Below are positions 2,866 to 60,780 of a DNA stretch of 64,000 bases, piece by piece (the first letter of the stretch is position 1; every line of letters begins with the position of its first letter). The position numbers and the translations under genes were made by a program. Origin of the DNA: Escherichia phage fEgEco12; the sequence record PP777464.1. One strand, written 5' to 3'. Under the pieces are notes generated by a model. It worked only from the letters and a program-made list of their open reading frames with translations. It was not told the origin of the DNA and searched no databases.

Positions 2866-2981
<116 letters not shown>

Positions 2982-2985
2982 AAAT

Positions 2986-3071
<86 letters not shown>

Positions 3072-3088
3072 CAATTAAAGGTTAAACC

Positions 3089-3249
<161 letters not shown>

Positions 3250-3253
<4 letters not shown>

Positions 3254-3410
3254 CACATGAAGAATGGATGAATGACATTAATTTTAGATATTCGGGTATC
3301 GGTAAATGGCTAAAGTATCATTGGGAATTCATTTCAGAGCCGCATCTGTATGATAAACTTATCAACGATCCAGCATATGAAATGTACTTAATTGAACTAC
3401 TGGTACGAAT

Positions 3411-3414
<4 letters not shown>
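3250..3414 (+). CDS. small protein, MTHEEW family (copy 2)
   Basis: 54-aa ORF, ATGA overlap with copy 1. Confidence 0.4.
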
Positions 3415-3583
<169 letters not shown>

Positions 3584-3585
3584 AG

Positions 3586-4006
<421 letters not shown>

Positions 4007-4011
<5 letters not shown>

Positions 4012-4027
4012 CTAAATAGTTCAGTAC
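4007..4027 (+). repeat. 21-nt repeat CTTGACTAAATAGTTCAGTAC, copy 2 (no -10 box)
   Basis: identical 21-mer also at 3586, 4078, 4847. Confidence 0.8.
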
Positions 4028-4066
4028 CAAGGAGATTAATATGTTTAAAGATGAACGTCCAGATTT

Positions 4067-4107
<41 letters not shown>

Positions 4108-4109
4108 GA

Positions 4110-4440
4110 ATTCCACAATCAGACGTATATGGTGTAAGTTACGTCGATGCAATCCAGAACAAGATCTCTGGTACTCTAGGAAGTGGTGAATGTTAACCTA
4201 GACGGGTTTGATAATTGGACGATAGGCAATTATTACTTGACTAGCAGGTTTAAACTAGAGGTGACTATCCTTCACCAAACTGGAAAACCGGATGGACTTT
4301 TATTTAAAAGGGTAAGGCGTGGAAATATGTTTACAGTAGTTGCTTTTAGTAGCCTGTACGCCCCACGTCAAGGTAGCCGAAAGGCAAGTTAAAACGGGTG
4401 GTTATAAAGCTTAATTAACAGCGGCGTTTAAAAGCGTCAC
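4110..4440 (+). ncRNA. candidate small stable RNA (promoter-driven, poor coding potential, ends in hairpin plus T-run)
   Basis: locally GC-richer; only a weak GTG-initiated ORF (4183-4392); T-run at 4445-4451. Confidence 0.25.
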
Positions 4441-4469
4441 CATCCATTTTTTTAATTAAAGTTGGTGAT

Positions 4470-5289
<820 letters not shown>

Positions 5290-5302
5290 ATAGGAAATTA
5301 AA

Positions 5303-5488
5303 ATGCAACTTTTAATTCTTTCAATATTGTATATTATTATAATGGTTCCGATATCAATACGTTTAATTACAGTTGAACGATTTTTATCGAAACATGGAAA
5401 TAGATCTATGATCTTTGTACCAATCGGGTTGATATTGTTTGGTATATTTTCATTTATAATGGGAATTAACGCTACATTCATTTCATAG
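5303..5488 (+). CDS. small membrane protein
   Basis: 61 aa, two hydrophobic segments. Confidence 0.45.
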   Translation: MQLLILSILYIIIMVPISIRLITVERFLSKHGNRSMIFVPIGLILFGIFSFIMGINATFIS

Positions 5489-5497
5489 GAAACAAAT

Positions 5498-5755
<258 letters not shown>

Positions 5756-5763
5756 GAATTTAA

Positions 5764-6165
5764 ATGAAAAAGAATGACTTGATCAAAATGCTTCAAGAGA
5801 TTGACGGCAATCCAGAGATTGTTATTTGGAATGGATATGTCGATGATTATATGAACATCGAAAAAGGCTTGACTAAAATCACTCTAGTCAAAGAAACTGA
5901 ACAGTTCCTTCTGGAAGCATTAGTGCACGAATGGTGCAAACGTAACAATACATTCGACATTCCAGAAGATCAACGAACTAAGATTGCAGAACAAGCTAAA
6001 AAACTTCATAAGAAACGTGAATACGATTTCCAGAACCCACATGTTACTGAAGACGAATTCAATCACTGGTACGGTAAAAAGAAATTGACAAAATATGTCA
6101 TTTCACCTAAACTACGTGGTAAGACTTCACTTGGTGTCTTCAACGCCGCTGACTTAAACTACTAG
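5764..6165 (+). CDS. hypothetical protein (N-terminus paralogous to 6178 ORF)
   Basis: MKKNDLIKMLQ versus MKAKDLIKILQ. Confidence 0.55.
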   Translation: MKKNDLIKMLQEIDGNPEIVIWNGYVDDYMNIEKGLTKITLVKETEQFLLEALVHEWCKRNNTFDIPEDQRTKIAEQAKKLHKKREYDFQNPHVTEDEFNHWYGKKKLTKYVISPKLRGKTSLGVFNAADLNY

Positions 6166-6174
6166 CGGGTATTA

Positions 6175-6442
<268 letters not shown>

Positions 6443-6487
6443 GATTCCCGATTCAGTAGCTTATAAAGCAGTTCCGTGTGTGCCTAT

Positions 6488-6540
<53 letters not shown>

Positions 6541-6541
6541 T

Positions 6542-6579
<38 letters not shown>

Positions 6580-6598
6580 AGAGGTACTTCGAGTATGC

Positions 6599-6724
<126 letters not shown>

Positions 6725-6726
6725 TA

Positions 6727-6816
<90 letters not shown>

Positions 6817-6887
6817 TGCCAAACAGCTTGAAGAACTTTGTAGTGCTGCACCTATGCCGACACTTGGCTTAATCAAGTTGATGCGTA

Positions 6888-6929
<42 letters not shown>

Positions 6930-6980
6930 GCCTCCCCTCAATGCGAAAGAGTATAGAGACTTGTTGGTTATCTTACTTCT

Positions 6981-7063
<83 letters not shown>

Positions 7064-7066
7064 TCA

Positions 7067-7139
<73 letters not shown>

Positions 7140-18079: not shown

Positions 18080-19048
18080 GTGAAAAAGCTTGATTTAAAT
18101 GCAATTTCTGAAGAAGTACTGGATGAGTGTTTTGCTAGTGAAGAAGTCAACGTATTAGAGGCTCTTGATTCCGTCGAAGAAGAAGAAGAACATGACGGTC
18201 ACAAGTTTGAGAAACCAAAAACAGGTATCAGCTTAACTCGCCCTAAAGGGATAACGAATGAAATGCTCATCCAAGCAGTGCGTGATGGTATTGACGTTGA
18301 AAAGAACATTGACCTTTTGGTTCGCTACAACTATCCAATGGTAGTAAGTGTTGCACGTAAGTGTACATGTTTTATCCCATTTGAAGATAAGATTTCTTAT
18401 GGTGTTGAAGGTTTAATGCGAGCAATTCATACGTTCGACACTACCAAAAATGTTAAGTTCATTACATATGCAACAACAACTGTGTACATGACAATCTATA
18501 ACGAAAGTGCAGATGCTAATTATCTAGTGCATTTCCCACGTTATATGAGTGTTAATAACATTTATGTGAAACGTTGTGTAGAAGAGTATCAAAGGAAACA
18601 TGGTAAATACCCAACTCCTGAGATGGTGTCAAAAGAGACTGGTATTGAGATTCAACACGTTAAGAATTGTCTAACTTACAATAACACTTATGTAGCATTG
18701 AATATGAAAATGAGTAATGATTCAGAAAGTACATTATCTGACATTGTTACTTCAGTTGAACCTGATTACAACTTAGGCGTAGAAACTGTCAGTACCCCAC
18801 TGGTACAAAGTATTGCAGAAATGATGAGTAACCTATCTGCCAAAGACCGTGAATTGATTGAACGTGTACATGGTATTGGTTCTTATTCTGAACCAGAAAC
18901 GCTACGAGAAATCATTGAGAGTGGTTTTGAAGATGAGAAGGGTAAGGTCATGACTGCTCGTTCTTCATTGCACCGTAAGTACTCTGAAGCAATGGAACGA
19001 CTGCGTAAGATGGTTAAGACAAAAGGTTATGAGTTCGAAGATTTTTAA
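18080..19048 (+). CDS. sigma-70-family RNA polymerase sigma factor-like protein
   Basis: GTG start after AGGAG; region-2-like GVEGLMRAIHTFD...FITYATT; region-4-like C-terminal HTH. Confidence 0.55.
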   Translation: MKKLDLNAISEEVLDECFASEEVNVLEALDSVEEEEEHDGHKFEKPKTGISLTRPKGITNEMLIQAVRDGIDVEKNIDLLVRYNYPMVVSVARKCTCFIPFEDKISYGVEGLMRAIHTFDTTKNVKFITYATTTVYMTIYNESADANYLVHFPRYMSVNNIYVKRCVEEYQRKHGKYPTPEMVSKETGIEIQHVKNCLTYNNTYVALNMKMSNDSESTLSDIVTSVEPDYNLGVETVSTPLVQSIAEMMSNLSAKDRELIERVHGIGSYSEPETLREIIESGFEDEKGKVMTARSSLHRKYSEAMERLRKMVKTKGYEFEDF

Positions 19049-19055
19049 GATTAAA

Positions 19056-19081
19056 GGGTTGACTTCGGTCAGCCTTTTTTT
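19056..19081 (+). terminator. rho-independent terminator, UUCG tetraloop hairpin plus T-run
   Basis: GGGTTGAC-TTCG-GTCAGCC then TTTTTTT. Confidence 0.75.
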
Positions 19082-19089
19082 ATGGGACA

Positions 19090-19610
19090 AATTTATTAAT
19101 GGTGATACAATGATCTATGTACAATCACAATGACAGTACTGGTACTGACAATCTTCCCCTACTTCACTTGAAAATGTAAAGGATAGATGAGCTTTTCATT
19201 GTAGCGAACAGCAAAAGAAACCCGTTAGATGTGGGCATAGTTTGAACCCCTCACGGCAATGCGGCTGTATAAAGAACCACGTTAGGATAGCTGGTGGTTC
19301 CTCGATAGACATATAAGGATAACACCTTACGAATTATCTAAGGGAGAGTTATCGAATTTTGTACAGGAAAGTTGCGTCCAAAATTTGAGTACTCACATTA
19401 AGTATTTGATTGCATAGATACTTAATGAAGATACACTATGTTTAAAAGTGTAGACCGTCATATGAAACTGAAGTAGAGAGAAACAGGATGACCCGCTTTC
19501 GCACTCGTTATGAGTAATCTTCAATGCAATAGCTCTGATACCATCAGCGTCAAATTTCCCTCCGTGCGGGGGGGAAGAAAAATCCCTTCCTCAAATCCCG
19601 TCAATATTAA
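19090..19610 (+). ncRNA. candidate structured noncoding region (no ORF of 60 aa or more, several hairpins, locally GC-richer)
   Basis: for example GAACCAC-13 nt-GTGGTTC at 19274-19300 and a CCCTCC...GGGGGGG element near 19555. Confidence 0.3.
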
Positions 19611-19615
19611 AAGTC

Positions 19616-19644
19616 CTTGACAGTTATGATTCATTCGCGTAGAA
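19616..19644 (+). promoter_or_regulatory. sigma-70-like promoter TTGACA-N17-TAGAAT
   Basis: TTGACA 19616-19621, TAGAAT 19639-19644. Confidence 0.5.
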
Positions 19645-19709
19645 TACGTAGTATTAGAAGCGAACAGACATCTCGAAGAGATGGATGATTAACCACTAAG
19701 GAATATCTA

Positions 19710-19919
19710 ATGAATTCAGTAATCTTTTTAATTATTGCTCTTTCACCACAATCTGGTGTACAAATCACCCCAATGAATTCAATGAATCAATGCATTGCAG
19801 TACGTGACAGTACGTATGAACAAGTAAACAGCGTTTCACTTAGAACAGTTGGTGAAGAATTAATGTGGTGTTACAATAGTAATACTAAAGAAAAACTAAT
19901 TGTTGGACAAACAGAATGA
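19710..19919 (+). CDS. small protein with N-terminal hydrophobic segment
   Basis: 69-aa ORF. Confidence 0.5.
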   Translation: MNSVIFLIIALSPQSGVQITPMNSMNQCIAVRDSTYEQVNSVSLRTVGEELMWCYNSNTKEKLIVGQTE

Positions 19920-20143: not shown

Positions 20144-20145
20144 AA

Positions 20146-20939
20146 TGAGCACTATAGATGAATTGATTCGCCGGAATTCAAAATACTACGACCCATCAGA
20201 AATTGTCGGCAACATTACTAAATCTGAGTTCGGACCAAATACTCGAAAACTCATTCATGTAATGTCACGTGATGGCTTTAAATGTGATTGTTGTGGTGAA
20301 TCCAATGTGGTATTCACTTTACATAAGCACAGTACTAAAGACCGTTATAAATTCAGACCTTATGTACTTAAAGGGAAACGCCTTGTACGCATGACGTTAG
20401 ACCATAATGTACTGGACTGTCTTCAGGGCGGTAATGATAAAGAGAACATGACTGCATTGTGTGAGGATTGTAACGCATTACGCCAGCATAAGTTTGCTGA
20501 GTACAGTGAGTTTAAGCACTGGTATCATAACGCTGATCGTTCTATCGAGCCTGACGTTAACTACTGCTTCATTGAGTATATTAAGAATGCTAAAGATACA
20601 TACATTCTTAAATCAATGTCACCTATTACAGTGTTCCCTGAGAATCTATTCAGTACTATGCAGCGTGATTTTAAACGTGGTATCATTAATGCATTCAAAC
20701 ATTTAGACAAAGGTATCAAGCACTTTGAGGTGCAATGCTTAAATGAAGGAATGAATCGTTTAGTACAAATTTACATGAAATCATTTATAGGTGTTGACAC
20801 CGCACGTCTACCAGTATATAATTACTTTATTGAAAGCGAAGAAGGTGAATCTCTTCGTGATTATGGTGAAAGATTTAATAACAAAGTCTTCGCTGCAATA
20901 TCAAACGAGATTCATTACTATAAACCATATGTAATTTAA
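20146..20939 (+). CDS. HNH endonuclease-like protein
   Basis: CDCCG...LDHNVLDCLQGGNDKENMTALCEDCNALRQH; start moved to ATG 20146. Confidence 0.55.
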
Positions 20940-42397: not shown

Positions 42398-43522
42398 TTA
42401 ATTATCTAAGCCACCAATTACACTGAACTGTGTGGTAACGTCTGAACTATTATCTATGTAAGTTCTTCTACCAACATAATATAGTTGTCCTTTTGCTTGA
42501 ATAAAAGTTACGGTCCCTGTATTGAATGTTATAATATCATTGTATGTAATGTCAGGTGGTAGTGCTGCTGATAACGCAGTAACTTTACTTAATGCAGCAC
42601 TAGTACTACCATTTATACCAGCAGCAATACTACCAGTACCATAGAACTTATTATCTTTACCAATGAATACGTTGGCTGATGCTTGTGTAGCTGATGTTAT
42701 TGCCTTACCAATTTGGAATGCGGTTCCTATGGTGTATGGTGTGCTCCTGGCTGCGTCTATGCTTTGTGTATATCCATCCCCTAGCTGACCATTAACTTTG
42801 TCACCACATGAGTATAGAGTACCATTGAGGCTGTATATGATCCCACGGTTAGAGAAGCTAACAGCTTCTGCATTAGTCCATACTGGTGCGGTGTATGAGT
42901 TTACACGACTAGCGGTAGTTCCTAGACCTAGTATACCATATGTGTTATCACCACATCCAAACCATTGTCCAGAACTGTTTTGATAGAACACTGAACGTTC
43001 TGTTGATTCCATGCGTACAGCATCCACAGCACCACTTTTAACGAACGAAGTTGATGAGGATGTAGTACCAGTACCCAATGCACCATAAGTGTTTGTACCA
43101 ATCGCATAGATTGATCCTAGTGGTGTCATAACACGTATGCAGTTATATCCCAATTGAACTTTACATTCAAATAGGTTGTCCCATATTTCAGGAACAGCAG
43201 AAAATAAATTTGTAATTTCGAACCATGATGTTGTCGAATCAGTTAATCCAATACTGCTTTTGTTTCCTAAAATGAAAACAGTTTTGTCCTTCTTAATTAT
43301 CCATGATGATAGGAAACCTATCTCACAGCTATGAACATTTGATTCTATTTGGGTAATATAATACTTAACTGTGTTATCACCCATGAATGCCGCAGCACCG
43401 GATGCAAAAAGGTTTCCAGTTTGTTTATTTAAAATGTAGTTATTGTTTCCATATACACTAACATCATAAGAACTTTCTTGTTTTTCGTTCCCATAATCAA
43501 ATAACAATACGAAAGGTAACAT
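42398..43522 (-). CDS. cassette protein 15 (last in array): RCC1-like repeat beta-propeller, variant N-terminus MLPFVLLFDYGN
   Basis: GTNTYGALGTG, GDNTYGILGLG, GDKVNGQLGDG repeats. Confidence 0.75.
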   Translation of the reverse strand: MLPFVLLFDYGNEKQESSYDVSVYGNNNYILNKQTGNLFASGAAAFMGDNTVKYYITQIESNVHSCEIGFLSSWIIKKDKTVFILGNKSSIGLTDSTTSWFEITNLFSAVPEIWDNLFECKVQLGYNCIRVMTPLGSIYAIGTNTYGALGTGTTSSSTSFVKSGAVDAVRMESTERSVFYQNSSGQWFGCGDNTYGILGLGTTASRVNSYTAPVWTNAEAVSFSNRGIIYSLNGTLYSCGDKVNGQLGDGYTQSIDAARSTPYTIGTAFQIGKAITSATQASANVFIGKDNKFYGTGSIAAGINGSTSAALSKVTALSAALPPDITYNDIITFNTGTVTFIQAKGQLYYVGRRTYIDNSSDVTTQFSVIGGLDN

Positions 43523-43599
43523 GATAAAATCTCCTTGTGTTATACTTTATTTAATCATTTTATAATGTACAATTTTACAGCGATTTAATTGAGGTACTC

Positions 43600-44250
43600 A
43601 TGAATAAAAGAAGTAAGTTCTATCAAGAATATTTCACTAAACAGAAACGATTCACAAAAAAATACTTTACATCATCCCACCGACCAGTTGCAAGTTACAA
43701 ACGTCCTAATACTAACTATCTTACTGGTGGCAAGTTTAGTGCAAAGTTCGAATTACTTATGCGTGAAAAGAATATCAAGATGCATTACGCAGAGACGAGA
43801 AAAAACTCATCAATTATTTGTTCTGATTTTCTTGAGTACGGTTGTTTAACTTATAAATTCAACGATGTATATTTGTATATTGATGTTGATTGTAACAGTA
43901 CTCGTATGTTTGAGATTTCAATTCACCCAAATCACAACCGTTATATAAACATTAACTTGGTTGATAAAGTACTGATTGGTATATCTAGTACTGATGGTGG
44001 TGGATTTGAATTTATTGCTTCAAAATATGATGAGGACTTTGTACTGTTCCCAGTACTTGATGATGTGAAAGATATTCTCAATTCATTAAAAGGAAGTCAA
44101 TACAAATTATCTGAAGAACAGCTATTTCAGTACTCACTTATTCATGATGATATCGAGATATACTTAGAGTGTGCGAGAATATTGGAGTATCTTTATAATG
44201 AACTAACAACAACTGGTAAAGTGACAGCATTCACATTATATAATATGTAA
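43600..44250 (+). CDS. hypothetical protein, FQYS motif family, embedded on opposite strand inside the cassette array
   Basis: 216 aa; LFQYSLIHDD motif. Confidence 0.6.
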   Translation: MNKRSKFYQEYFTKQKRFTKKYFTSSHRPVASYKRPNTNYLTGGKFSAKFELLMREKNIKMHYAETRKNSSIICSDFLEYGCLTYKFNDVYLYIDVDCNSTRMFEISIHPNHNRYININLVDKVLIGISSTDGGGFEFIASKYDEDFVLFPVLDDVKDILNSLKGSQYKLSEEQLFQYSLIHDDIEIYLECARILEYLYNELTTTGKVTAFTLYNM

Positions 44251-44257
44251 AAGAAAA

Positions 44258-44276
44258 GCCAGTACATAGTACTGGC
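44258..44276. terminator. GCCAGTAC...TACTGGC hairpin
   Basis: GCCAGTAC-ATAG-TACTGGC. Confidence 0.6.
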
Positions 44277-44282
44277 ATTATA

Positions 44283-45419
44283 TTAAACTGGTGGAGAATT
44301 ATATGGCTCAAATTTATAAGTTGTCGTAGCAGTACCAGCAATGGCGTTGTTAGCTAGTATGTACATAGTCCTGTAGTCGATTACCACTACAGTAATACTA
44401 CCACCAAAAGCATAGTCTGTTATGTTATTAGTGTTGAATGGTAAATTAGATGAACTGGTCCATGTATTAGCTGTTGTGCTATTTGTACCATTGGAATAAC
44501 CTACACTAGATGCACCAGTTGTCCATAAGTTTCCATCATTGAACAAGGAGACATGGTTAGTTGTATATGATTTATTAGGTATAGAACTATCAATTGGTGT
44601 ATTCCAAACTTTAGTAACCCATGTTGTAACTGCTGTATTATTAGTAACGCCATTACCTAATGAACCATTTATTGGTATACCTCTTATATAAGAAGTGTTA
44701 GTACTAGGGTCAACATATCCAAATGTATATGTATCAAATGCAAATTGAAAACAATCAGAACTCGGTAATGTGTACAGTAATGTATATGAAGACGTGTTTA
44801 TTGATGAATTTGTACCGTTCACGCCTTGGTATAAAATACCACTAGCCAATATTTGATTATTATTTTTTGTTATAGTGTTCATTGATGGATATGTTTTCAC
44901 ATCACGCACATCATTAGTCACATATGTTTGTGTTGATAATGCAACGTTACTACCATTACCTATAACCCCTGTATTTGCACCACTCCCATAAAGTGAACCA
45001 TCATTCAAAAGAACCATTGTAACATTACCATTTCCCGTAATTGTTTTAATATTACTAACATCCACCGCAGCAAATACAGTTGATGTTAAATCAGTGAAAC
45101 GTGTATAATGTGATGTTGTGCCATTGATTGGTGTCGCAAAACCAGAATACAAAATTCTATTTTCTTTGGTAATAAGGAATGTGCCAGTAACACCATTTGA
45201 ATGGATATCAACAATATTATCGCCCATTAATACCCAATCACTTACGAATGTTGTTGTACCAGTACCCAACCCATATGTCGTATTGTATCCACGTCCATAC
45301 ACTCTACCATCACTGAGTAATGTTACCACACATTGACCACCACCACCAAGGATAACTTTTTGGATAGTACTCTTTACTTTTATATTCCCGTACTTAACCA
45401 TTCTTGCAAAAGGTAACAT
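44283..45419 (-). CDS. cassette protein 14: RCC1-like beta-propeller, N-terminus MLPFARMVKYGN
   Basis: 378 aa; RGYNTTYGLGTG; no hairpin between it and cassette 13. Confidence 0.75.
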   Translation of the reverse strand: MLPFARMVKYGNIKVKSTIQKVILGGGGQCVVTLLSDGRVYGRGYNTTYGLGTGTTTFVSDWVLMGDNIVDIHSNGVTGTFLITKENRILYSGFATPINGTTSHYTRFTDLTSTVFAAVDVSNIKTITGNGNVTMVLLNDGSLYGSGANTGVIGNGSNVALSTQTYVTNDVRDVKTYPSMNTITKNNNQILASGILYQGVNGTNSSINTSSYTLLYTLPSSDCFQFAFDTYTFGYVDPSTNTSYIRGIPINGSLGNGVTNNTAVTTWVTKVWNTPIDSSIPNKSYTTNHVSLFNDGNLWTTGASSVGYSNGTNSTTANTWTSSSNLPFNTNNITDYAFGGSITVVVIDYRTMYILANNAIAGTATTTYKFEPYNSPPV

Positions 45420-45433
45420 TCTTTTTCTCCTTG

Positions 45434-46582
45434 TTATATTGATGGCATATCCAACACATATGAGTTGCTAGTGATTGATGAATATGTAGAATTTAAACCT
45501 GTACTATAAACATAATCACCTGCCCATAAGAATGTTCTATCCAATGTTGTATGTATTTCAATATCATCATATGATGATAATGATATTTGTGCCAGTGTAT
45601 ATGTAGTAGCATCAATGTTTGAACCAATACCCAAAGTACCATTGTATTGTGATTGGGAGTTTTGACCAGTTGCATATATACCAGATTTGGTTATTAAATG
45701 CTGATTGTACATTGACGTACCTTTAAACAATTTAATTAAATTAGAGTTGGGTGTTGTTATTTGTGCAGGAGCAAGTATTGTTGTTGTAGTGCCACCATCA
45801 CCCAATTGACCATATCGTTGGTAACCACCAGCGTATACCTGTTTAACTCCAGCAGTAGTTTCTATAATAAAGAATGAACCATAGCCAGTAGTATTAAAGT
45901 CTATTATTTTATTTGTACTCAAACCAACATTATATCTAGTAAATGTTGTTGCATTTGCTGAACCACCAGCATTCCCACCGACCATTTGACCACTATAATA
46001 AAATGCACCAGTACTGTCAGTATAAGCCATACAGTTTTCACTACCATATATTTTCACTGGTGTACTGGGGAAACTAGAGGTTATATTCACACATGTATTA
46101 TATTTTGCAGTAGTTCCAGTAATTTCACCATTGTTGTTTTGACCAATGACCCAAACTGTGTCATCTGAACGTATAGCCATTGAGCTATAAAACGAGGATA
46201 CAAATTGTTTAATAAAGGAACCAGGGAGAGAAGTAAGCATACTATTGATTTGTGCACTCACATTGGTCCATGTATTCACAACTGAATTGACACCTGCTGC
46301 TGCACCGGAACCAGAACTCCACCATGATTCATCATTCTTTTTAATCAATGTACCGTTAGCAGAGCAATAAACATCAGCAACTGAACTATTAACTAATATC
46401 CATTCCCTCGCTGCTGTTGTATTACCAGTACCTAGCTGTCCTGCTGCATTACTACCCTTAGCATATAAATCGCCATTCTGCGTTAAAAGCATAGTATGTT
46501 GGTATCCAGTTGACAATTTCTTTATTTTTGGTAATGCTGGTGCTTCATTTCCATAATCAAACATTCTAACAAAAGGTAACAT
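45434..46582 (-). CDS. cassette protein 13: RCC1-like beta-propeller, N-terminus MLPFVRMFDYGN
   Basis: 382 aa; GSNAAGQLGTGN, YGQLGDGGTT. Confidence 0.8.
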   Translation of the reverse strand: MLPFVRMFDYGNEAPALPKIKKLSTGYQHTMLLTQNGDLYAKGSNAAGQLGTGNTTAAREWILVNSSVADVYCSANGTLIKKNDESWWSSGSGAAAGVNSVVNTWTNVSAQINSMLTSLPGSFIKQFVSSFYSSMAIRSDDTVWVIGQNNNGEITGTTAKYNTCVNITSSFPSTPVKIYGSENCMAYTDSTGAFYYSGQMVGGNAGGSANATTFTRYNVGLSTNKIIDFNTTGYGSFFIIETTAGVKQVYAGGYQRYGQLGDGGTTTTILAPAQITTPNSNLIKLFKGTSMYNQHLITKSGIYATGQNSQSQYNGTLGIGSNIDATTYTLAQISLSSYDDIEIHTTLDRTFLWAGDYVYSTGLNSTYSSITSNSYVLDMPSI

Positions 46583-46659
46583 AATTCCCTCCTTTATTCA
46601 TTATACTATATTTAATCAAAAAGAAAAGCCAGCACTCTGTACTGGCATAGTATTAAGGT

Positions 46660-47790
46660 TTAAATATTTTTATAATTAATTTCTACATAGTTACGTTGTG
46701 TTCCAGTATATCCTGGAACATTACCTATATTTCCATTACCTGCACCAAACAGACGTTCTCCGACTGCAAAATATGTCCCATAGAAACAACCATCAAACAC
46801 AGGAACATCATTATAATTTGATATGTAATTATCCATAGAATCCATTCTAGTGTATACTGTCAGAGCTACATTCGTACCCATACCATATGCACCATACGGG
46901 TTAGTACCAGCAACATAATACCCAGTGGGTGTACATATTACTGGTGAATTTGCCCCTGATCTCGTGTGGATAAATCTAAATGTACCTTCAGGTACTGGTG
47001 CTTCTTTACTGAATAATGTTGTAGCTACTACTGGGTAATCAATACCATAACTATTACCACTCAACCACGTTTTACCATCACTATCTTTGAATAATGAACA
47101 GGATTGTGTGCATCCGAACAGATTCAAATTGGTTACATTTGGAAATTTACTAATTTGTGTATATACCAGAACTGTGGTTGCGGCAGCACTACCAAGTTGT
47201 CCACGACCATTATCACCCGCACTGTACATGTACCCATCGGTCTTTAATATTATACTAGCGTTTCCTAAAATATCAAAATCAACAACATCCGTTTGTGTTA
47301 ATGTAGCTATAGGATAACGAAAATTCACTGCCTCACCAGTACCAAATTGACAATTGGTGTTTGCCCCACATCCATATAAGTTGCCGTTTTGCATTAATAT
47401 AAACAAACCTGTTGTCATTTTAATTTTCTTAATATTAAGAATATCTATATCTTGGAATATGTGTGTTACATTTACAAATGTGGTTGAGTTAACAGCACTT
47501 GAACCATAATAAGAACCGTTCCCGCTGCCAAAGAATTCATCGCCTTTTCTGTACATTGCACATAGACTACCACCCCATACATCATCAACCCCAGTGTCAA
47601 TTTGAATAACAGAAGTAACACTAGTTGTTGTACCAGTGCCAAGTTCACCACCTGAATTGTATCCAAAACCATACAAATCCCCACTTTCTGTTAGCACCAA
47701 AACACTGTTATTGGTTGTGCATGAAATCTTTTTGATATTATTAGATGGTCTTTTATTTCCGTACTTAACCATTCTTGCAAAAGGTAACAT
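46660..47790 (-). CDS. cassette protein 12: RCC1-like beta-propeller, N-terminus MLPFARMVKYGN
   Basis: 376 aa; GYNSGGELGTG, GDNGRGQLGSA. Confidence 0.8.
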   Translation of the reverse strand: MLPFARMVKYGNKRPSNNIKKISCTTNNSVLVLTESGDLYGFGYNSGGELGTGTTTSVTSVIQIDTGVDDVWGGSLCAMYRKGDEFFGSGNGSYYGSSAVNSTTFVNVTHIFQDIDILNIKKIKMTTGLFILMQNGNLYGCGANTNCQFGTGEAVNFRYPIATLTQTDVVDFDILGNASIILKTDGYMYSAGDNGRGQLGSAAATTVLVYTQISKFPNVTNLNLFGCTQSCSLFKDSDGKTWLSGNSYGIDYPVVATTLFSKEAPVPEGTFRFIHTRSGANSPVICTPTGYYVAGTNPYGAYGMGTNVALTVYTRMDSMDNYISNYNDVPVFDGCFYGTYFAVGERLFGAGNGNIGNVPGYTGTQRNYVEINYKNI

Positions 47791-47835
47791 ATTTCCCTCC
47801 TTTATTCATTATACTATATTTAATACAAAAAGAAA

Positions 47836-47856
47836 TGCCAGTATCAAGTACTGGCA
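47836..47856 (-). terminator. inter-cassette hairpin TGCCAGTA-TCAAG-TACTGGCA plus T-run on minus strand
   Basis: same hairpin at 49835, 51099, 59557. Confidence 0.65.
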
Positions 47857-47869
47857 TAGTTTTATAGTA

Positions 47870-48979
47870 TCATTTCGGCATTGTAATTGCAGACCATGAG
47901 TTCGTGGTAATAGGACCTGGCACATACAAAAAAGAACCACAAGCATAAATTTGATTATTACCATCAAATACTATACTAAAATGTGCACATGTGTATAATG
48001 CTGATTTTTCTGGGTTGTAATTATCTAAAGTTAGTGTATTGGTGAATCTACTCAAACCACCACCAGAACCATTTCTACCAAATTCACCAGTACTATATAT
48101 CTTTCCTTCGGTTGTTGCGTACATATTAACATATGAAGTTGCACTTGATTTTGATATTTTATGTATCTTACTATCAATAGTAGTGGAGTTAAATGCAAAT
48201 GGATATACTTGTGTGTTCGTTGTAATACCGTTACCAAGTTGACCAACATACTGCCAACCTGCGTTGTATATATTGCTGGCTGAATAAGCAAGAGTACCAG
48301 TACTGTTACCACCAAACAGTTTAACACTGGTTAACCTGCTTACTAGTGTAGTATACTGTCCTGGACTTACGCCAAGTGAACCATACCCACTACTCCCACA
48401 ACCGAGAAGTTCACCATTTGATGTTAATATTAATGTGTTATTCTGTGTACCCAATATATCAAGGACTGTATTAGCTCCGGTATTAATAACTGAAACAAAA
48501 GTACTCTGAGCCGTGGAATACCCAGCACCGAGTGAATAGTTACCATTCATGCCTCTACCATAAACAATCGAACCACTAGCATCAACGTAGTGCATTGTAT
48601 CTACACCAATTGATATCATTTTAATATTAGATATATGTGGAAATGAAGAAGTAACATTCAAACCACCCAACTGAATCGTAGTATTTCCTGTGCCTAATTG
48701 TGTGGTAACTCCATGCATTATGAATTCTTCACCCTTGAGATAAAGAATATTGTACGCCCCAGCCCATGCATCAGTAACACCTTCTGAAATTAATATCCAA
48801 GTATTTCTTGTTGCTGTATTTTCAACGTTTAACTGAAAATAAGTATTAACCCCACAACCATAAAGTGAGCCATCGCCATAGAGGACGTACAAATTATCAA
48901 GACCGCACAGTACTTTCTTTATCTTTGGATCTTCAGGTGCAATATTCCCGTAATCAAACATTCTAACAAAAGGTAACAT
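47870..48979 (-). CDS. cassette protein 11: RCC1-like beta-propeller, N-terminus MLPFVRMFDYGN
   Basis: start at MLPF ATG 48979 after GGAGG; track upstream extension discounted; close paralog of cassette 2. Confidence 0.8.
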   Translation of the reverse strand: MLPFVRMFDYGNIAPEDPKIKKVLCGLDNLYVLYGDGSLYGCGVNTYFQLNVENTATRNTWILISEGVTDAWAGAYNILYLKGEEFIMHGVTTQLGTGNTTIQLGGLNVTSSFPHISNIKMISIGVDTMHYVDASGSIVYGRGMNGNYSLGAGYSTAQSTFVSVINTGANTVLDILGTQNNTLILTSNGELLGCGSSGYGSLGVSPGQYTTLVSRLTSVKLFGGNSTGTLAYSASNIYNAGWQYVGQLGNGITTNTQVYPFAFNSTTIDSKIHKISKSSATSYVNMYATTEGKIYSTGEFGRNGSGGGLSRFTNTLTLDNYNPEKSALYTCAHFSIVFDGNNQIYACGSFLYVPGPITTNSWSAITMPK

Positions 48980-49051
48980 ATTTCCTCCTTTATTCATTAT
49001 ACTATATTTAATACAAAAAGAAAAGCCAGTACTCAAGTACTGGCCTATATT

Positions 49052-49789
49052 TTAGACTGAATTGTTAGGATAATATCTCCCACGTCCCCATATTATTCGC
49101 ACAGCACCACCACCAGCAGCAGTATAAGAAGAATTATCCCATATACTACCACCACCACCATACCTCTTACCAGCACCACCACTACCAGCACCACCATTAT
49201 ATGAACCACCGTAGCTACCACCAATACCATTAGCACCTTGAACAATGATACCAGTACCACCACCCGTACCAATGAACGAGGTACTATAGAATGTACCACC
49301 CCCACCGCCGCCGCCAGCACCATTTTCACCAGTGATTGCATCTCCGTTACCACCTTTACCAGTGTAGCCACCAGCACCACCACCAATGACTGCACCACCA
49401 CTTACACCAGTGTTGCCACCATTACCACCACCATCATTAATAGCGTTAGCAGCTTTTCCACCTAGTCCACCAACCGTATATGCACCAGTGAAGCTAACAC
49501 ATAGTTTTTCAGTTCCACGGTATAAACCGTTTTCAACTGCTGTAGTAGTGTTGGAATGTGTAAGAGAAACACTTAAGTACTCACCACCAGAAACTGGAAT
49601 ATTATTACGCCACGATAAGCCGCCACCAGCACCACGTTGACCACCCGGTGAAATAACACATACTGATATTTCGGTAACGCCAGCAGGAACTGTAAATTGT
49701 GTTGTTCCTATTGCCGTGATTAATTGTTCACCATGTGGCTTATATTCAATTTTATTCCCGTACTTAACCATTCTTGCAAAAGGTAACAT
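49052..49789 (-). CDS. cassette protein 10: glycine-rich protein with the same N-terminal module (MLPFARMVKYGN)
   Basis: 245 aa; irregular GGxGG runs, no collagen GXY periodicity. Confidence 0.75.
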   Translation of the reverse strand: MLPFARMVKYGNKIEYKPHGEQLITAIGTTQFTVPAGVTEISVCVISPGGQRGAGGGLSWRNNIPVSGGEYLSVSLTHSNTTTAVENGLYRGTEKLCVSFTGAYTVGGLGGKAANAINDGGGNGGNTGVSGGAVIGGGAGGYTGKGGNGDAITGENGAGGGGGGGTFYSTSFIGTGGGTGIIVQGANGIGGSYGGSYNGGAGSGGAGKRYGGGGSIWDNSSYTAAGGGAVRIIWGRGRYYPNNSV

Positions 49790-49861
49790 AATTCCCTCCT
49801 TTATTCATTATACTATATTTAATACAAATAATAATGCCAGTATCAAGTACTGGCATTATTA

Positions 49862-51052
49862 TTACAATTGTCTAGGTGTATCCAGAACATATCTATTTGT
49901 TTTAGGACCACCATCATCATAAGTTCCGGTTGAATATATATTTTTCATATCAGCAGTCAGGAAAGTACGCAACGAACCGCGATATATTTTTATTTTATCA
50001 TACATAGAATATGTTATTTCTGACGGCAATGGACATGCAGTAAATTTACCAATGGTAGCATCATAACCAACACCCAATGTGCCAGCATAACTACTCGCAT
50101 TTAAACCAGTTGCATATACACCTGTACTCGTAACTAGTATACTAGATTGTGCTGGGTATCCAGTATGGATTGAATAATAAGTACCGGGTGGTAATGTAGC
50201 ACTATTATTTCCTAAAACTCCATTAACAGTGCTAGATGTAGTTTTATTTCCCCATGCTCCATTATTAGCTAATCCACCAACTAGAAACTGACGTGCTCCT
50301 GTATTTGGATTCTCCACTAAAGCACTGACAGCACCAAATGAACAAACAGTATATTGTAATGTTTTTGTATATGTGGTACTTGGCTTATACAAAGTATATT
50401 CATTAAATGGTGTCCATGTGGTACTAGTACTTATGCCAGATGTACTACCACCAATATATAAATTATTTTGTGTATCATAAAACATTACACAGCTATTTGT
50501 TGACTGTATTCGTGCAATATCAACATTAGGCGTGACAGCTTTTACAAATGAACCATCTGATATTTGATAAGTAGTTCCTGTACCATCTGCGAATTGTCTA
50601 GCACTATTCCACCCTGTACTCCATATTGTATTATTATCCATTAAGAAAGTAAACCACGTAGTACCTGCATACATCTGTTTAATTGAAGTACTTGAACTTT
50701 GTGTGTACAAATTTTCAATATATTGGTTATAACTTAAAAATGATGTAGTACTAGTTTCTAAACCAATATGACTACCATATCCACAATAAAAATAATTTAA
50801 GTCCTTATCTTGAACTAACAAAGTTCCTTGTGTCATCCAGCAATCTTTGACATTTTCTCTAATTAATGTCCACGACCTTACTGCATTATTATTTCCTCTA
50901 CCAAACTTCCCATAACTATTACTACCTCGTGCGTATAGTTGACCGTCGGTATAAAGTACAACAACCTCAGTATCAGTTGGTATTATTTTCTTAATTTGAA
51001 GAGGTTCAGGTGTGATATTCCCATAATCAAACATTCTAACAAAAGGTAACAT
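49862..51052 (-). CDS. cassette protein 9: RCC1-like beta-propeller, N-terminus MLPFVRMFDYGN
   Basis: 396 aa; RGSNSYGKFGRG. Confidence 0.8.
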   Translation of the reverse strand: MLPFVRMFDYGNITPEPLQIKKIIPTDTEVVVLYTDGQLYARGSNSYGKFGRGNNNAVRSWTLIRENVKDCWMTQGTLLVQDKDLNYFYCGYGSHIGLETSTTSFLSYNQYIENLYTQSSSTSIKQMYAGTTWFTFLMDNNTIWSTGWNSARQFADGTGTTYQISDGSFVKAVTPNVDIARIQSTNSCVMFYDTQNNLYIGGSTSGISTSTTWTPFNEYTLYKPSTTYTKTLQYTVCSFGAVSALVENPNTGARQFLVGGLANNGAWGNKTTSSTVNGVLGNNSATLPPGTYYSIHTGYPAQSSILVTSTGVYATGLNASSYAGTLGVGYDATIGKFTACPLPSEITYSMYDKIKIYRGSLRTFLTADMKNIYSTGTYDDGGPKTNRYVLDTPRQL

Positions 51053-51123
51053 AATTCCCTCCTTTATTCATTATACTATATTTAATCAAAAAAGAAAAGC
51101 CAGTATCAAGTACTGGCGTAATG

Positions 51124-52266
51124 TCAATAAGTATCCCAAGGTAATGGTGTCTTCCTAAATCCATACCTGGTTGTGCTCGCACCATCACCAGCAATGTATC
51201 TACCTATACCACATTGGTATAACTCTGTACTACTACATATAGCACCACCAATAGTACCACTACTCCACTGAATTATATTAGAATATGTTATTGGTAAATC
51301 ACTACATTTAGTATATATTCCAACAGTAGCACCACCACTAATACCACCAAACATACTTCGGTTAGCACCAGTGTAATATATACCATCTGGACTCATAAAT
51401 GCAGAGGTGTAAGTTGTACTGCAATCCACTGGACTTCTTATTGTATTAAGATCGCCTGGGTATGTCCTGACACCAAAGGTGTATACATTACCATCAGTTG
51501 TAATACCATTACCTAACTGCCCACTGTTTTGTCCACCACATGTAAGCAACAATGCAGAACCAGAAACAATTGCAGTAGCATTATACGAAGTACCCATTGC
51601 AATAGAAGCACCAGACAATAGTTTTGGAGTAACAATAGCTGTTGTATTACCCTGGCCTAATTCACCATTGATATTTCGTCCCCATGCGTATATAGAAGTC
51701 GTGTCCAATCGACATAGTACTGAACCATAACTAAACGTATATCGCATGTCAATTACCGCATTAGGCAAATTAACCTTAGTTGCAACACTAATAACACCAC
51801 CAGTAACACCACTGTTTGCGTTCATGTTACGACCATATGCATATAAAGAACCATCTGAAGTTTTAATATGCATCATACCATCTGTACAATATAATGCATC
51901 TATACTCTCCACCGCAACCGGACCCATACTGGTAGTTATATCGGTCCACCCAAGAGAGGTAGTACTAGAAATTAAGTTATTTCCGGCGTATAGTATTCTA
52001 TTATTATTAGTAACTACAACTGTATATCTGGTAGTAACACCAATTAATCGAACATCAGTATATATCTTAGACCACGCACCTAATGAATTGGTGTTTGCAT
52101 CCAAAAAGCCCAACTGCCCATCTGTATTGTATCCAATACCCCATACATCACCTGCACTGTCCAATAACACTTCATGTGAAAATCCAATCTTAAAATCTTT
52201 TATTGTAGGAACTACCGGAACTGGTGCAATATTCCCGTACTTAACCATTCTAGCAAAAGGTAACAT
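51124..52266 (-). CDS. cassette protein 8: RCC1-like beta-propeller, N-terminus MLPFARMVKYGN
   Basis: 380 aa; GYNTDGQLGF, GQNSGQLGNG, GRNINGELGQG. Confidence 0.8.
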   Translation of the reverse strand: MLPFARMVKYGNIAPVPVVPTIKDFKIGFSHEVLLDSAGDVWGIGYNTDGQLGFLDANTNSLGAWSKIYTDVRLIGVTTRYTVVVTNNNRILYAGNNLISSTTSLGWTDITTSMGPVAVESIDALYCTDGMMHIKTSDGSLYAYGRNMNANSGVTGGVISVATKVNLPNAVIDMRYTFSYGSVLCRLDTTSIYAWGRNINGELGQGNTTAIVTPKLLSGASIAMGTSYNATAIVSGSALLLTCGGQNSGQLGNGITTDGNVYTFGVRTYPGDLNTIRSPVDCSTTYTSAFMSPDGIYYTGANRSMFGGISGGATVGIYTKCSDLPITYSNIIQWSSGTIGGAICSSTELYQCGIGRYIAGDGASTTRYGFRKTPLPWDTY

Positions 52267-52340
52267 AATTCCCTCCTTTATTCATTATACTATATTTAAT
52301 ACAAATAAGAATGCCAGTACTCTGTACTGGCATTTTAATT

Positions 52341-53495
52341 TTAACTCGGTGTAACTATTTTTTTAAATAATCCTGTATTTCCGGCATTTTCTTCTTCATA
52401 CGGAATTGTACCCATACCAGCAGTTCTACTACCATTCCCTGAACCATATAATTCACCGTTTTTTAACATGAATGTTATCATATAACCATGTGTCATTTTA
52501 TCATATGGAACTGGTTCAGTTATATTAGTACATGCACGCCATGTTTTAATAACATTAGAGTTCGTTATTCCATCTCCAGAAGCGTTTCCACGCCCAGCGA
52601 AATACCATATACCACCTGCTCTAACGTGTGCTTCATAATTAGAACCACCTATGTAATCAATCGCAGTACTAGGAATACTAGAAGCTGGTATCTTTGTGAT
52701 TGTTCTAAGACTGTTAATAGTGCCATCAGTGCCATCACCCAACTGTCCATCTATTTGTGAACCGAATACATATAGCCCATCACTCTTTAATACGTAATTA
52801 GCACTATATGCATTTTCTGAATTTATCTGTAATACTCCAGTAGTAACAGTAGTCAATGTGGTAGTTGTACTAGTCGTACCAGTCGAACCAATACTAGATT
52901 TATTCCCACTGTACTTTAATGTCCCATCATTGTATAATACAAATGAAGCATTATTCGCGGTTACACCAATATCTTTAACATCAACTTCAGGTGTCAATGT
53001 CAGTACTGATACTCTTTGTCCAACAGCCCCAGTAAAAACTTCACCGTTGTTATTGTCACCCATCTTATATAATTTATTATCTATTGTTAATAATAATGTA
53101 ACGCCGTTTCCTATAACTATTTTACTATATGTGTCATTCACATTATTAAAAATACCAAGTATTTCTGTCCATACACGATAAGTAGTATTAACACCACGAT
53201 AGATTTGAGTACCAGTACTCCACCATGTGCCATCATTTTTACGTACTAATATTCCTTGTGTATCACCAGTAGTCCAAAATTCCTTTACATCAGTTAAACA
53301 TAAAACCCACTCTTCAACTATAGTAGGAGAACTACTACCAGTACCTAATTGATAGTAAAAATTATGCCCTCTGCCATATAATCTTCCGTCTTCTAATAAA
53401 ATAAACACATTATTCTGTAAAACTTTTACCATCTTTATACCAACTGGCACAGGTGCTTCATTCCCATAATCAAACATTCTAACAAAAGGTAACAT
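52341..53495 (-). CDS. cassette protein 7: RCC1-like beta-propeller, N-terminus MLPFVRMFDYGN
   Basis: 384 aa; GHNFYYQLGTG, GSQIDGQLGDG. Confidence 0.8.
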   Translation of the reverse strand: MLPFVRMFDYGNEAPVPVGIKMVKVLQNNVFILLEDGRLYGRGHNFYYQLGTGSSSPTIVEEWVLCLTDVKEFWTTGDTQGILVRKNDGTWWSTGTQIYRGVNTTYRVWTEILGIFNNVNDTYSKIVIGNGVTLLLTIDNKLYKMGDNNNGEVFTGAVGQRVSVLTLTPEVDVKDIGVTANNASFVLYNDGTLKYSGNKSSIGSTGTTSTTTTLTTVTTGVLQINSENAYSANYVLKSDGLYVFGSQIDGQLGDGTDGTINSLRTITKIPASSIPSTAIDYIGGSNYEAHVRAGGIWYFAGRGNASGDGITNSNVIKTWRACTNITEPVPYDKMTHGYMITFMLKNGELYGSGNGSRTAGMGTIPYEEENAGNTGLFKKIVTPS

Positions 53496-53565
53496 ATTTC
53501 CCTCCTTTATTCATTATACTATATTTAATCAAAAAGAATGCCAGTACTTGAGTACTGGCATTATG

Positions 53566-54675: not shown

Positions 54676-54683
54676 AATTCCTC

Positions 54684-55877: not shown

Positions 55878-55952
55878 AACTAAAATCTCCATATAATAAT
55901 TATAATGTATTTACAAAAAAATACCAGTACGTATTTCAGTACTGGTATAATG

Positions 55953-57134: not shown

Positions 57135-57207
57135 AATAAAATCTCCGTAATTAAATTATATAGTATTTACAAAAAATACCAGTACATATTTCAGTACTGA
57201 CCTATTA

Positions 57208-58329: not shown

Positions 58330-58401
58330 ATTTCCCTCCTTTATTCATTATAATATATTTAATACAAAAAAGAAAAGCCAGTACAGAGTACTGGCATAGT
58401 A

Positions 58402-59511: not shown

Positions 59512-59556
59512 ATTTCCTCCTTTATTCATTATACTATATTTAATACAAAAAGAAAA

Positions 59557-59575
59557 GCCAGTATCAAGTACTGGC
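59557..59575 (-). terminator. inter-cassette hairpin GCCAGTA-TCAAG-TACTGGC
   Basis: read directly. Confidence 0.65.
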
Positions 59576-59583
59576 ATATTAAA

Positions 59584-60732: not shown

Positions 60733-60780
60733 ATTTCCTCCTTTATTCATTATATCATATTTACCCCAAAAAGAAAACCC

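Follow-up and report, generated by a model that had tools for sequence, protein, structure and literature searches.

Few noncoding RNAs are both large and intricately folded, and the discovery of every such class (RNase P, group I and II introns, OLE, GOLLD, ROOL, raiA) has started a line of biochemistry. The classes GOLLD, ROOL and OLE are several hundred nucleotides (nt) long, with many helices and pseudoknots, highly conserved unpaired bases and no obligatory protein neighbour, and GOLLD and ROOL are borne by phages or prophages. Folded RNAs can also act in cis: HK022 put and the Bacillus EAR element work by an established mechanism of processive antitermination, and ColE1 RNA II is a folded pre-primer of ~550 nt that depends on its fold. 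The present report concerns a 64,000-nt stretch of DNA from Escherichia phage fEgEco12 (sequence record PP777464.1; referred to as the window), in which positions 19,049 to 19,709 form a gap between genes. Comparative sequence analysis shows this gap to be an autonomous gene for a + strand RNA of ~440 nt with an ornate predicted fold, and it is held with high confidence that the gene belongs to a family of structured RNA genes. The predicted fold comprises ~20 helices, three pseudoknots, many invariant unpaired bases and one peripheral module that changes position between copies.

The RNA resembles GOLLD, ROOL and OLE in the respects named above, but its sequence motifs differ, it matches none of their Rfam models, and it occurs in enterobacterial and Xanthomonas jumbo phages as four to five diverged, regularly spaced paralogues per genome, an arrangement not reported for those classes. 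Six tRNA genes were found in the window at 2892-7139 (Rfam gathering threshold); because this cluster is 12 kb distant, the RNA gene is not tRNA-adjacent as GOLLD and ROOL often are. HK022 put and EAR are cis-acting folded RNAs that head a transcription unit, with terminators after them and no adjacent protein cofactor gene, a layout which the locus may share; they have no homology to it and are far shorter. As with ColE1 RNA II and the transcripts of the phage T4 origins oriF and oriG, the RNA has its own promoter and does not serve translation, and RNA II is also alike in its length and in requiring a correct fold. These origin systems show no sequence homology to the RNA, which is far more elaborate and conserved and has a terminator after most copies. 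Phage T4 has at least five origins without a common sequence motif, and at oriF and oriG, each a promoter with a downstream unwinding element, a transcript starting at a phage-specific promoter forms a primer R-loop (PMC3016281). The five evenly spread units found here lie in genomes with reported T4-type replication genes (PMC5259590). A last comparison is with ncRNA002 of PA5oct, a Rak2-like-related jumbo phage, which is a highly expressed, open reading frame (ORF)-free transcript of 451 nt annotated as a putative long noncoding RNA. Because it was detected by RNA-seq (PMC7318152), jumbo phages related to Rak2 do express large noncoding RNAs. It differs from the present RNA in being G+C-rich and not known to be multi-copy, and was rejected as a homologue, having no nhmmer or core covariance-model match.

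Evidence for a structured + strand RNA

The analysis used an alignment (A2) of 50 non-redundant copies (<96 % identical), with helices identified from a scan of all column pairs for covariation together with reading of the alignment; RNAalifold applied to raw MAFFT alignments gave poor global structures. The 105 proposed pairs in 20 helices are standard pairs in 85.5 % of cells, against 68.1 % after shuffling, with none of 500 shuffles reaching the observed value, and sliding the 3' partners by 1-3 columns lowered pairing to 37-45 %. Changes on both sides of a pair were found in 864 cells against 283 expected, and the covariation score is 0.444 vs 0.167. Seven helices (stem b, P3, P3a, PKW, PKX, P9 and P10) are 100 % paired, and six of these carry double changes at two or more pairs, the exception being P3a. 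P2, P4, P7, P8 and P11 are 83-92 % paired. An earlier reading of the window from its letters alone (the sequence-only reading) had placed a structured noncoding RNA first among its candidates for the gap, and this is now strongly supported by covariation and by strand-specific G-U pairing, the gap sequence being conserved in related phages with compensatory changes across homologues.

In the supported helices there are 266 G-U pairs and 73 A-C oppositions, and a GC hairpin at 19555-76 varies solely by C<->U changes opposite G, which yield G-U pairs on the + strand only; these two asymmetries identify the RNA as the + strand. By folding energy the signal is weak on both strands (z-score -1.9 for + and -2.4 for -), tells nothing about which of them is the RNA and makes stability no decisive criterion. 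The lack of an ORF of 60 amino acids (aa) or more in 660 bp of AT-rich DNA is by itself not improbable. What exceeds chance for the gap is conservation and covariation, not stability or ORF absence.

The RNA is preceded by its own promoter. The motif TGnTAnAAT, with GRRAC(A/C) upstream, is conserved ahead of every paralogue checked, and the -35-like motif of Mimasvirus is TGAAAC, matching the 'divergent RpoD-like' promoter class of phage CBB, a class found mostly near DNA-synthesis genes (PMC5259590). The 5' end of the RNA is predicted from the geometry of the promoter, and the 3' end from the hairpin and U-run that follow 'CGUCAG' in most paralogues.

In the 5' domain, P1 (19127-33 with 19196-202) is formed with the loop of the 3-bp stem b (19191-93 with 19203-05), and a 2-nt linker across the P1 deep groove would make this a compact pseudoknot. 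Stem b is paired in 50/50 sequences, with UA/CG/AU and AU/UA swaps, and its flanks are the invariant UGA...GA (tandem G.A). Compensatory swaps also occur in P1, e.g. ACAAUGA/UCAUUGU vs CUGCUUGA/UCAGGCAG, and P2 is 92 % paired. P3 has double changes at 4/5 pairs, and the motif CGGCAAUGCGGC is nearly invariant in the same domain. The sequence-only reading had also named two hairpins, and both are real and conserved: GAACCAC/GUGGUUC (P4) is 90.5 % paired in the 50 homologues, with double changes at 7/7 pairs, and the G-run hairpin is kept by the C<->U changes described above. The junction between P4 and P5 is conserved as GAUAGACAUAU; GAUAGAC varies hardly or not at all in the 50 sequences, the same is true of much of the AUAU and AAGGGAG after it, and P5 is 82 % paired. 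Within the core domain, P7, P8 and P11 are 83-90 % paired, and PKW, PKX, P9 and P10 show many double changes. PKX is a GUCAU pairing into the P10 loop, and PKW joins the P7 loop to a strand just 3' of P9. Two further helices lacked family-wide support and were rejected, namely PK5 (19319-23 with 19348-52; 30-60 % paired) and the window register of P12 (36 % paired).

A peripheral module with the consensus UACAAU(A/G)NAG(A/U)U..(C/U)(G/A)UC(C/U)AAAAUU occupies the P6 site in at least 20 copies, lies inside P11 in at least 13 (loci L046, L050, L054, L061, L043, L033, L014 and others), and is present at both places in 1/50 (L342). This mobility is what may be expected by analogy with peripheral tertiary elements in large folded RNAs.

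Most paralogues have a strong hairpin and U7-8 intrinsic terminator after 'CGUCAG', and a terminator was detected at the corresponding position in copy C of phage 121Q; in the window copy the register of the 19535-57 hairpin is not conserved (36 % paired). Beyond the terminator position lies a further module in which GGGG and most of CGUCA are invariant. Its GC hairpin and CCUCAAAUCCCGUCAA are conserved at the RNA level even in copies with strong terminators, and because of this conservation read-through transcripts, or other transcription of the 19555-19613 module, must matter. The first 40 nt past the conserved 3' motif average 78 % A+T vs ~65 % further on, a short patch in a genome that is A+T-rich overall. 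At the 5' side, the paralogue located at ~25-35 kb in Mimasvirus and Eneladusvirus (L031, L018, L021, L039, L041, L027) has TATAAT followed by a strong hairpin and U-run (e.g. GGACAGUA..UACUGUCCUUUUUU) directly 5' of the RNA; this hairpin is either the terminator of the upstream gene or a 5' leader hairpin specific to that copy.

The RNA was compared with known families. Rfam 15 (4227 families), scanned over the whole window with cmscan at the gathering threshold, returned tRNAs only, and with lax filters on a 1-kb region and 11 paralogue loci (E up to 5-10) it returned chance-level matches only. ARAGORN found no tRNA or transfer-messenger RNA (tmRNA) in 18900-19800. The tmRNA, group I intron and RNase P identities, for which the sequence-only reading had suggested scanning, fell away at the sensitivity of these scans, with zero Rfam matches even at E up to 10. 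For RNase P RNA no covariance-model match was found in the 1-kb region or the 11 paralogue loci, and the RNase P CR-V look of 'ACAG..ACCCGCUU' is not borne out by pairing, the ACCCG-proximal bases pairing locally (PKX, P10) and not with a CR-I-like strand. For tmRNA, both a tRNA-like domain (ARAGORN, 18900-19800) and an Rfam tmRNA match were absent. The element stands between a terminator and a promoter and not inside a gene, as a group I intron would, and has no group I match in Rfam; the distance from PKX 5' to P9 5' is only 7 nt, leaving no room for a P4-P6 domain, and the likeness to P/Q/R/S fails in pairing and topology. Models of GOLLD, ROOL, OLE, raiA and HEARO gave no match in the Rfam 15 scans.

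A likeness to the hammerhead core was also considered. At 19184-19208 the family consensus reads CAGAUGAG-(stem)-CGAA, which is similar to CUGAUGAG-(stem II)-CGAAA, with tandem G.A pairs beside a G-C-closed stem. The position corresponding to U4 is A in 47/50 sequences, the 'CAG' (C3-G5) is paired in P2, an Rfam hammerhead match is absent, and there is no stem III or cleavage-site strand, since P3 pairs downstream at 100 %. The segment is most simply read as a tandem-G.A junction motif. A description of the element was not found in the openly searchable full-text literature, and these large pseudoknotted RNAs, confined to Rak2-like jumbo phages, are proposed as a new class. For a candidate class it is unusually well supported, by 50 diverse sequences, by three pseudoknots that show covariation and by a promoter that is defined.

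Distribution and spacing of the copies

The window is 99 % identical to phages WPEC3, EC.P1 and vB_Ec-M-J and derives from an Asteriusvirus-like jumbo coliphage. The gap was found by blastn in 60 phage records. In the more distant Asteriusvirus members (121Q, PBECO4, UE-S1) it is 88-94 % identical, and in most of these phages, e.g. 121Q, the adjoining sigma gene was not aligned by megablast. In other genera ~450 nt (window ~19157-19615) are ~70 % identical, a set that includes Pectobacterium CBB, Cronobacter GAP32, Serratia BF, Erwinia pEa_SNUABM, Yersinia fHe-Yen9-04, Salmonella 7t3/Munch and Xanthomonas XbC2. In all these records the homologous region is an ORF-free gap of 600-790 bp, filled in some with mutually inconsistent small ORFs, and the UE-S1 GenBank record annotates parts of two copies as 'repeat_region'.

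Paralogues were discovered when a conserved 20-nt motif searched in IMG/VR matched several places per genome; an nhmmer profile of the gap was then applied and recovered a full-length copy (~480-630 nt) at each motif place. The window copy matches the full-length profile at 19117-19616 (E=3e-129) and the core covariance model R1 with 81 bits (E=6.5e-18); the next match has E=0.5, so that the window holds exactly one copy. This copy has the core GACCGU...GAAAC(A/C)G..(A/G)ACCCGC with PKX, P9 and P10, and the pairing of the P7 loop 3' of P9, which define the family. The presence of four to five paralogues per genome, the restriction of the RNA to ~19118-19556 and not the whole gap, and a promoter of its own inside the gap go beyond the sequence-only reading.

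Phage 121Q has four copies, at 90.7, 193.2, 247.8 and 327.0 kb, and five were found in each of CBB, GAP32, BF, fHe-Yen9-04 and three uncultivated relatives. By clustering, two copies from one genome differ more from each other than a copy does from its orthologue in another genus, from which it follows that the copies are ancient and each has been kept separately. They stand at syntenic sites, and all five sites are kept across genera. Each of the five CBB copies and the three examined 121Q copies lies in its own ORF-free gap of 600-790 bp among unrelated neighbours, which are, from copy to copy, a sigma factor or small hypotheticals, a DNA methyltransferase, structural genes, endonuclease VII and a baseplate hub, or hypotheticals.

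On this sequence sampling the family appears confined to the Rak2-like jumbo phages, namely Asteriusvirus, Mimasvirus, Eneladusvirus and their relatives. In bacterial and archaeal genome contigs (at least 120 loci), one true member was present among the matches listed, on a 212-kb contig binned as Enterobacteriaceae and probably of phage origin, and the rest were chance. A metagenome pattern scan (at least 120 loci) gave ~14 true members among the matches listed. The core pattern used on metagenomes also matched a highly conserved 63-nt stretch (...CGACCGTGACCGCAGTTCC...GAAACCGAAGCACCCGC...) in human-gut loci, 27 of them among the matches listed (L232, L237, L241, L246 and ~23 others); this stretch has no relation to the RNA family and apparently codes for protein in a gut organism that is abundant. 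Two weak covariance-model matches, inside a 192-aa stop-free frame, were likewise rejected as chance.

The copies within a genome are all co-oriented and lie 50-85 kb apart, and one copy is on the + strand inside a - strand gene cluster. In CBB, whose physical genome ends were inferred by its authors (PMC5259590), the base farthest from a copy is 41.8 kb away, vs a theoretical optimum of 37.8 kb, and simulation of random placement with a linear covering statistic gave P=5e-6. When the seven five-copy genomes were treated as circles and the largest gap was used, P was 1e-4 to 2e-3, with an equivalent pattern in all seven. As far as we have found, four to five anciently diverged, syntenic, co-oriented and nearly optimally spaced paralogues are undescribed for a phage noncoding RNA in the searchable literature.

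Candidate functions

A position-tied role is favoured because random placement fails to explain the spacing, the co-orientation and the retention of sites across genera. The probability that the RNA has a role in cis linked to genome position, of any kind, is put at roughly 0.5. The RNA would then work at or near its own locus in a manner dependent on genome position. The leading mechanistic guess, from the regular spacing of copies, is a link to replication, in which each unit would mark an early replication origin and the folded transcript would be a pre-primer or an R-loop-forming, replisome-recruiting RNA. A replication or packaging element had also been among the candidates of the sequence-only reading. 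Indirect support for an origin role comes from the TGAAAC promoter class and the five even, co-oriented units, the G-run hairpin and short A+T-rich patch 3' of the RNA may add to it, and T4-type replication genes are present in these phages according to the CBB authors (PMC5259590). That the element is specifically an origin RNA (a folded origin or pre-primer RNA) is nevertheless a tentative proposal that we would expect to fail more often than hold. The broader idea that Rak2-like jumbo phages define origins, or another position-dependent process, by ornate ~440-nt cis-acting RNAs every ~75 kb is possible to a like, limited degree.

Several points weigh against a position-linked origin RNA. 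The spacing statistic was chosen after the pattern had been seen, and since the genomes are syntenic the spacing amounts to one or few independent observations. In 121Q, which represents the genus of the window (Asteriusvirus), the four detectable copies are less evenly spaced (P=0.02). The units share dozens of invariant bases, which is more typical of ribozymes or ribonucleoprotein (RNP) scaffolds, whereas T4 origins have no motif in common, and to our knowledge known origin transcripts are less ornate than this RNA. An efficient-looking terminator precedes the G-run hairpin in most paralogues, by which the RNA would be released and not hybridised. No obvious long unwinding element or iterons were seen at the unit, and no change of GC skew at the site.

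The next best account, though a doubtful one, is a stable RNA acting in trans, as an RNP scaffold, a ribozyme or a self-assembling RNA like GOLLD, ROOL or OLE, with several copies for dosage or sub-specialisation and a spacing that is incidental. The layout is that of a discrete RNA gene, running from promoter through folded RNA to hairpin and U-run, with no linked protein gene. The three pseudoknots and many invariant unpaired bases suit such a role, as do a tertiary-contact-like module that swaps position in the manner of the peripheral elements of large ribozymes and a pseudoknot 'address' sequence that is distinct in each paralogue. Large phage-borne RNAs of unknown function are also known (PMC12286853). 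A trans-acting RNA, however, leaves the regular spacing, strict co-orientation and five-site retention across genera unexplained, does not account for a conserved RNA-level hairpin past the apparent terminator, and is not backed by any kinship, in sequence or in structure, with GOLLD, ROOL, OLE, RNase P, tmRNA or another Rfam family.

Processive antitermination in cis, of the kind known from HK022 put and Bacillus EAR, is improbable. Here the nascent RNA would let polymerase pass the terminators that follow and would be reloaded every ~75 kb. All copies do lie along the main direction of transcription at regular spacing, one of them being separated from + strand structural genes by two genes that transcription must cross in antisense; a terminator stands directly after the RNA with conserved RNA beyond it, which points to read-through transcripts that matter; and intrinsic terminators are dense, a single repeat family having eight copies in 20 kb of the window. 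Known antiterminator RNAs are, however, 70-120 nt, vs 440 nt and three pseudoknots here, and most small operons have promoters of their own, some fused to the preceding terminator (D8), so that long read-through is not obviously needed. The terminator of the window copy is also weak.

Control of the genes from 19710 onward by the RNA as a long 5' leader, a riboswitch or attenuator responding to a ligand or protein, is very unlikely. The order of promoter, large folded RNA and terminator is the classic attenuation layout, but the genes that follow change from copy to copy, are served by a separate sigma-70 promoter and at one copy lie on the opposite strand; a riboswitch family match is absent, and an alternative antiterminator pairing was not noticed, no systematic search for one having been made.

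Least credible of all, and given almost no weight, is a repeat that works as DNA only, for protein binding, recombination or packaging, or else a coding gene that is decayed or very small. In favour of this stand the 'repeat_region' annotation of parts of two copies in one record, the small ORFs called in the gap by some records, and repeated CGTCAG motifs that could be protein sites. Against it, the compensatory changes preserve pairing, pseudoknots between distant segments included, and the excess of G-U over A-C makes sense solely for a + strand transcript; conservation of a reading frame is absent, and the small ORFs match no protein family.

If the spacing is functional, the family would reveal how replication or transcription is organised in phage genomes of 350 kb, a question largely open for jumbo phages without a nucleus-like compartment; should the RNA specify origins, the system would have no sequence or structural relative among known RNAs. 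Several carriers are E. coli phages that can be cultivated (121Q, PBECO4, phAPEC6 and Sharanji among them), which makes direct testing possible.

Features of the locus and its surroundings

The features of the RNA unit and its boundaries, together with the positions of the copies in four five-copy genomes, are collected in Table 1.

Table 1 Features of the RNA unit in the window and positions of copies in related genomes
Feature	Position	Strand	Description
Intrinsic terminator of sigma-factor gene	19056..19081	+	hairpin GGGTTGAC-TTCG-GTCAGCC then T7; 5' boundary, outside the RNA
Own promoter of RNA	19084..19111	+	GGGACA-16-TACAAT with TG (extended -10); consensus scan
RNA body, ~440 nt	19118..19556	+	nhmmer, 20-helix covariation, G-U/A-C asymmetry
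5' domain	19127..19205	+	P1/stem b pseudoknot enclosing P1a (19134-47) and P2 (19159-86)
P3 domain	19208..19268	+	ACAGC/GCUGU closing a near-invariant internal loop (AAAAGAAAC / CAAUGCG); P3a (CCGU/ACGG), P3b hairpin
P4 hairpin	19274..19300	+	GAACCAC...GUGGUUC
Junction and P5	19301..19346	+	single-stranded CUCGAUAGACAUAU, P5 hairpin 19314-29, near-invariant UAAGGGAG 19339-46
P6 hairpin	19353..19387	+	carries the ~25-nt module UACA..AG.U.CGUCCAAAAUU
Core domain	19396..19531	+	P7 (19396-405 with 19418-27), P8 (19432-52), P9 (19469-73 with 19519-23), P10 (19476-80 with 19496-500), P11 (19503-06 with 19512-15), PKW (P7 loop 19410-14 with 19525-29), PKX (19457-61 with 19488-92); covariance model R1
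3' hairpin	19535..19557	+	CUGAU-ACC-AUCAG then CGUCAAAUUU; terminator position, weak signal in window copy
Module beyond terminator position	19555..19613	+	GC hairpin UUUCCCUCC-GUGC-GGGGGGGAA (19555-76), motif CCUCAAAUCCCGUCAA (19589-604), A+U-rich tail
Sigma-70 promoter of downstream genes (19710 onward)	19617..19645	+	TTGACA-17-TAGAAT, 11/12 positions; 3' boundary
Copies in CBB	32.7 / 94.6 / 174.8 / 258.5 / 336.7 kb		genome 378.4 kb
Copies in GAP32	35.5 / 99.1 / 177.8 / 261.8 / 341.0 kb		genome 358.7 kb
Copies in BF	30.6 / 93.3 / 174.9 / 259.1 / 335.6 kb		genome 357.2 kb
Copies in fHe-Yen9-04	24.9 / 93.6 / 174.6 / 260.7 / 335.1 kb		genome 354.4 kb

The sequence-only reading had described the gap as lacking any ORF of 60 aa or more, as lying between a terminator and a promoter, and as GC-richer than its surroundings. 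The ORF listing agrees, none on either strand of 19049-19709 being longer than 45 aa; the terminator and the sigma-70 promoter are both confirmed; and G+C is 0.39-0.40 in the gap vs 0.33-0.37 in most flanks, a modest elevation with comparable values elsewhere in the window. Its suggestion of a degraded gene did not hold, as no conserved reading frame was present among the 50 copies (median longest stop-free stretch 75 aa) and no frameshifted ORF with homologues was found. Five small ORFs in the gap (34-43 aa) had zero Pfam matches. Existing annotation either leaves these ~650-bp gaps empty or places spurious small ORFs there, as far as the examined records go, and annotation as an RNA gene is due.

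Upstream of the gap is the sigma-factor gene (18080-19048; Pfam Sigma70_r2 and Sigma70_r3). Its terminator belongs to the 8-copy terminator repeat family D7 of the window, and a simple terminator scanner made no call on the 19056-19081 hairpin and T-run, though it is visible in the sequence. Downstream, promoter-like sequences containing TTGAC follow many paralogues, often with GAAAAT(T/C)C ahead. A 264-aa ORF at 20145-20939 (+) is named 'HNH endonuclease' in several GenBank records and has no Pfam match at E<0.01. In Mimasvirus and Eneladusvirus, too, an ORF of similar size (~265 aa) stands after the corresponding RNA copy. An association of the RNA with this 'HNH endonuclease' in the manner of IscB and omega-RNA was rejected, the neighbours of other paralogues being unrelated and a Pfam HNH match lacking.

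Further repeats were noted in the window. A composite terminator-promoter repeat, GGGTTGACTTCGGTCAGCCC-T5-GCTATAAT (~44-69 nt), occurs on the + strand at 19037, 27162, 30756, 31536, 33117, 33799, 38421 and 39004; its terminator stem holds a TTGACT -35 hexamer, with a matching -10 box right after the T-run, and because the hexamer is inside the stem the repeat is taken as a fused termination and re-initiation signal. A second promoter-like repeat, TTGACTAAATAGTTCAGTACTGTATAATG, occurs on the + strand at 3573, 4065, 4824, 21429, 25391 and 36257, with CAGTACTG conserved between the hexamers, and GTAC-containing motifs recur 3' of RNA units in many phages. At 42398-60750 (-) there is a tandem array of ~15 paralogous ORFs of ~375-400 aa, a head-to-tail family with conserved 5' ends and upstream regions (repeat families D1-D5).

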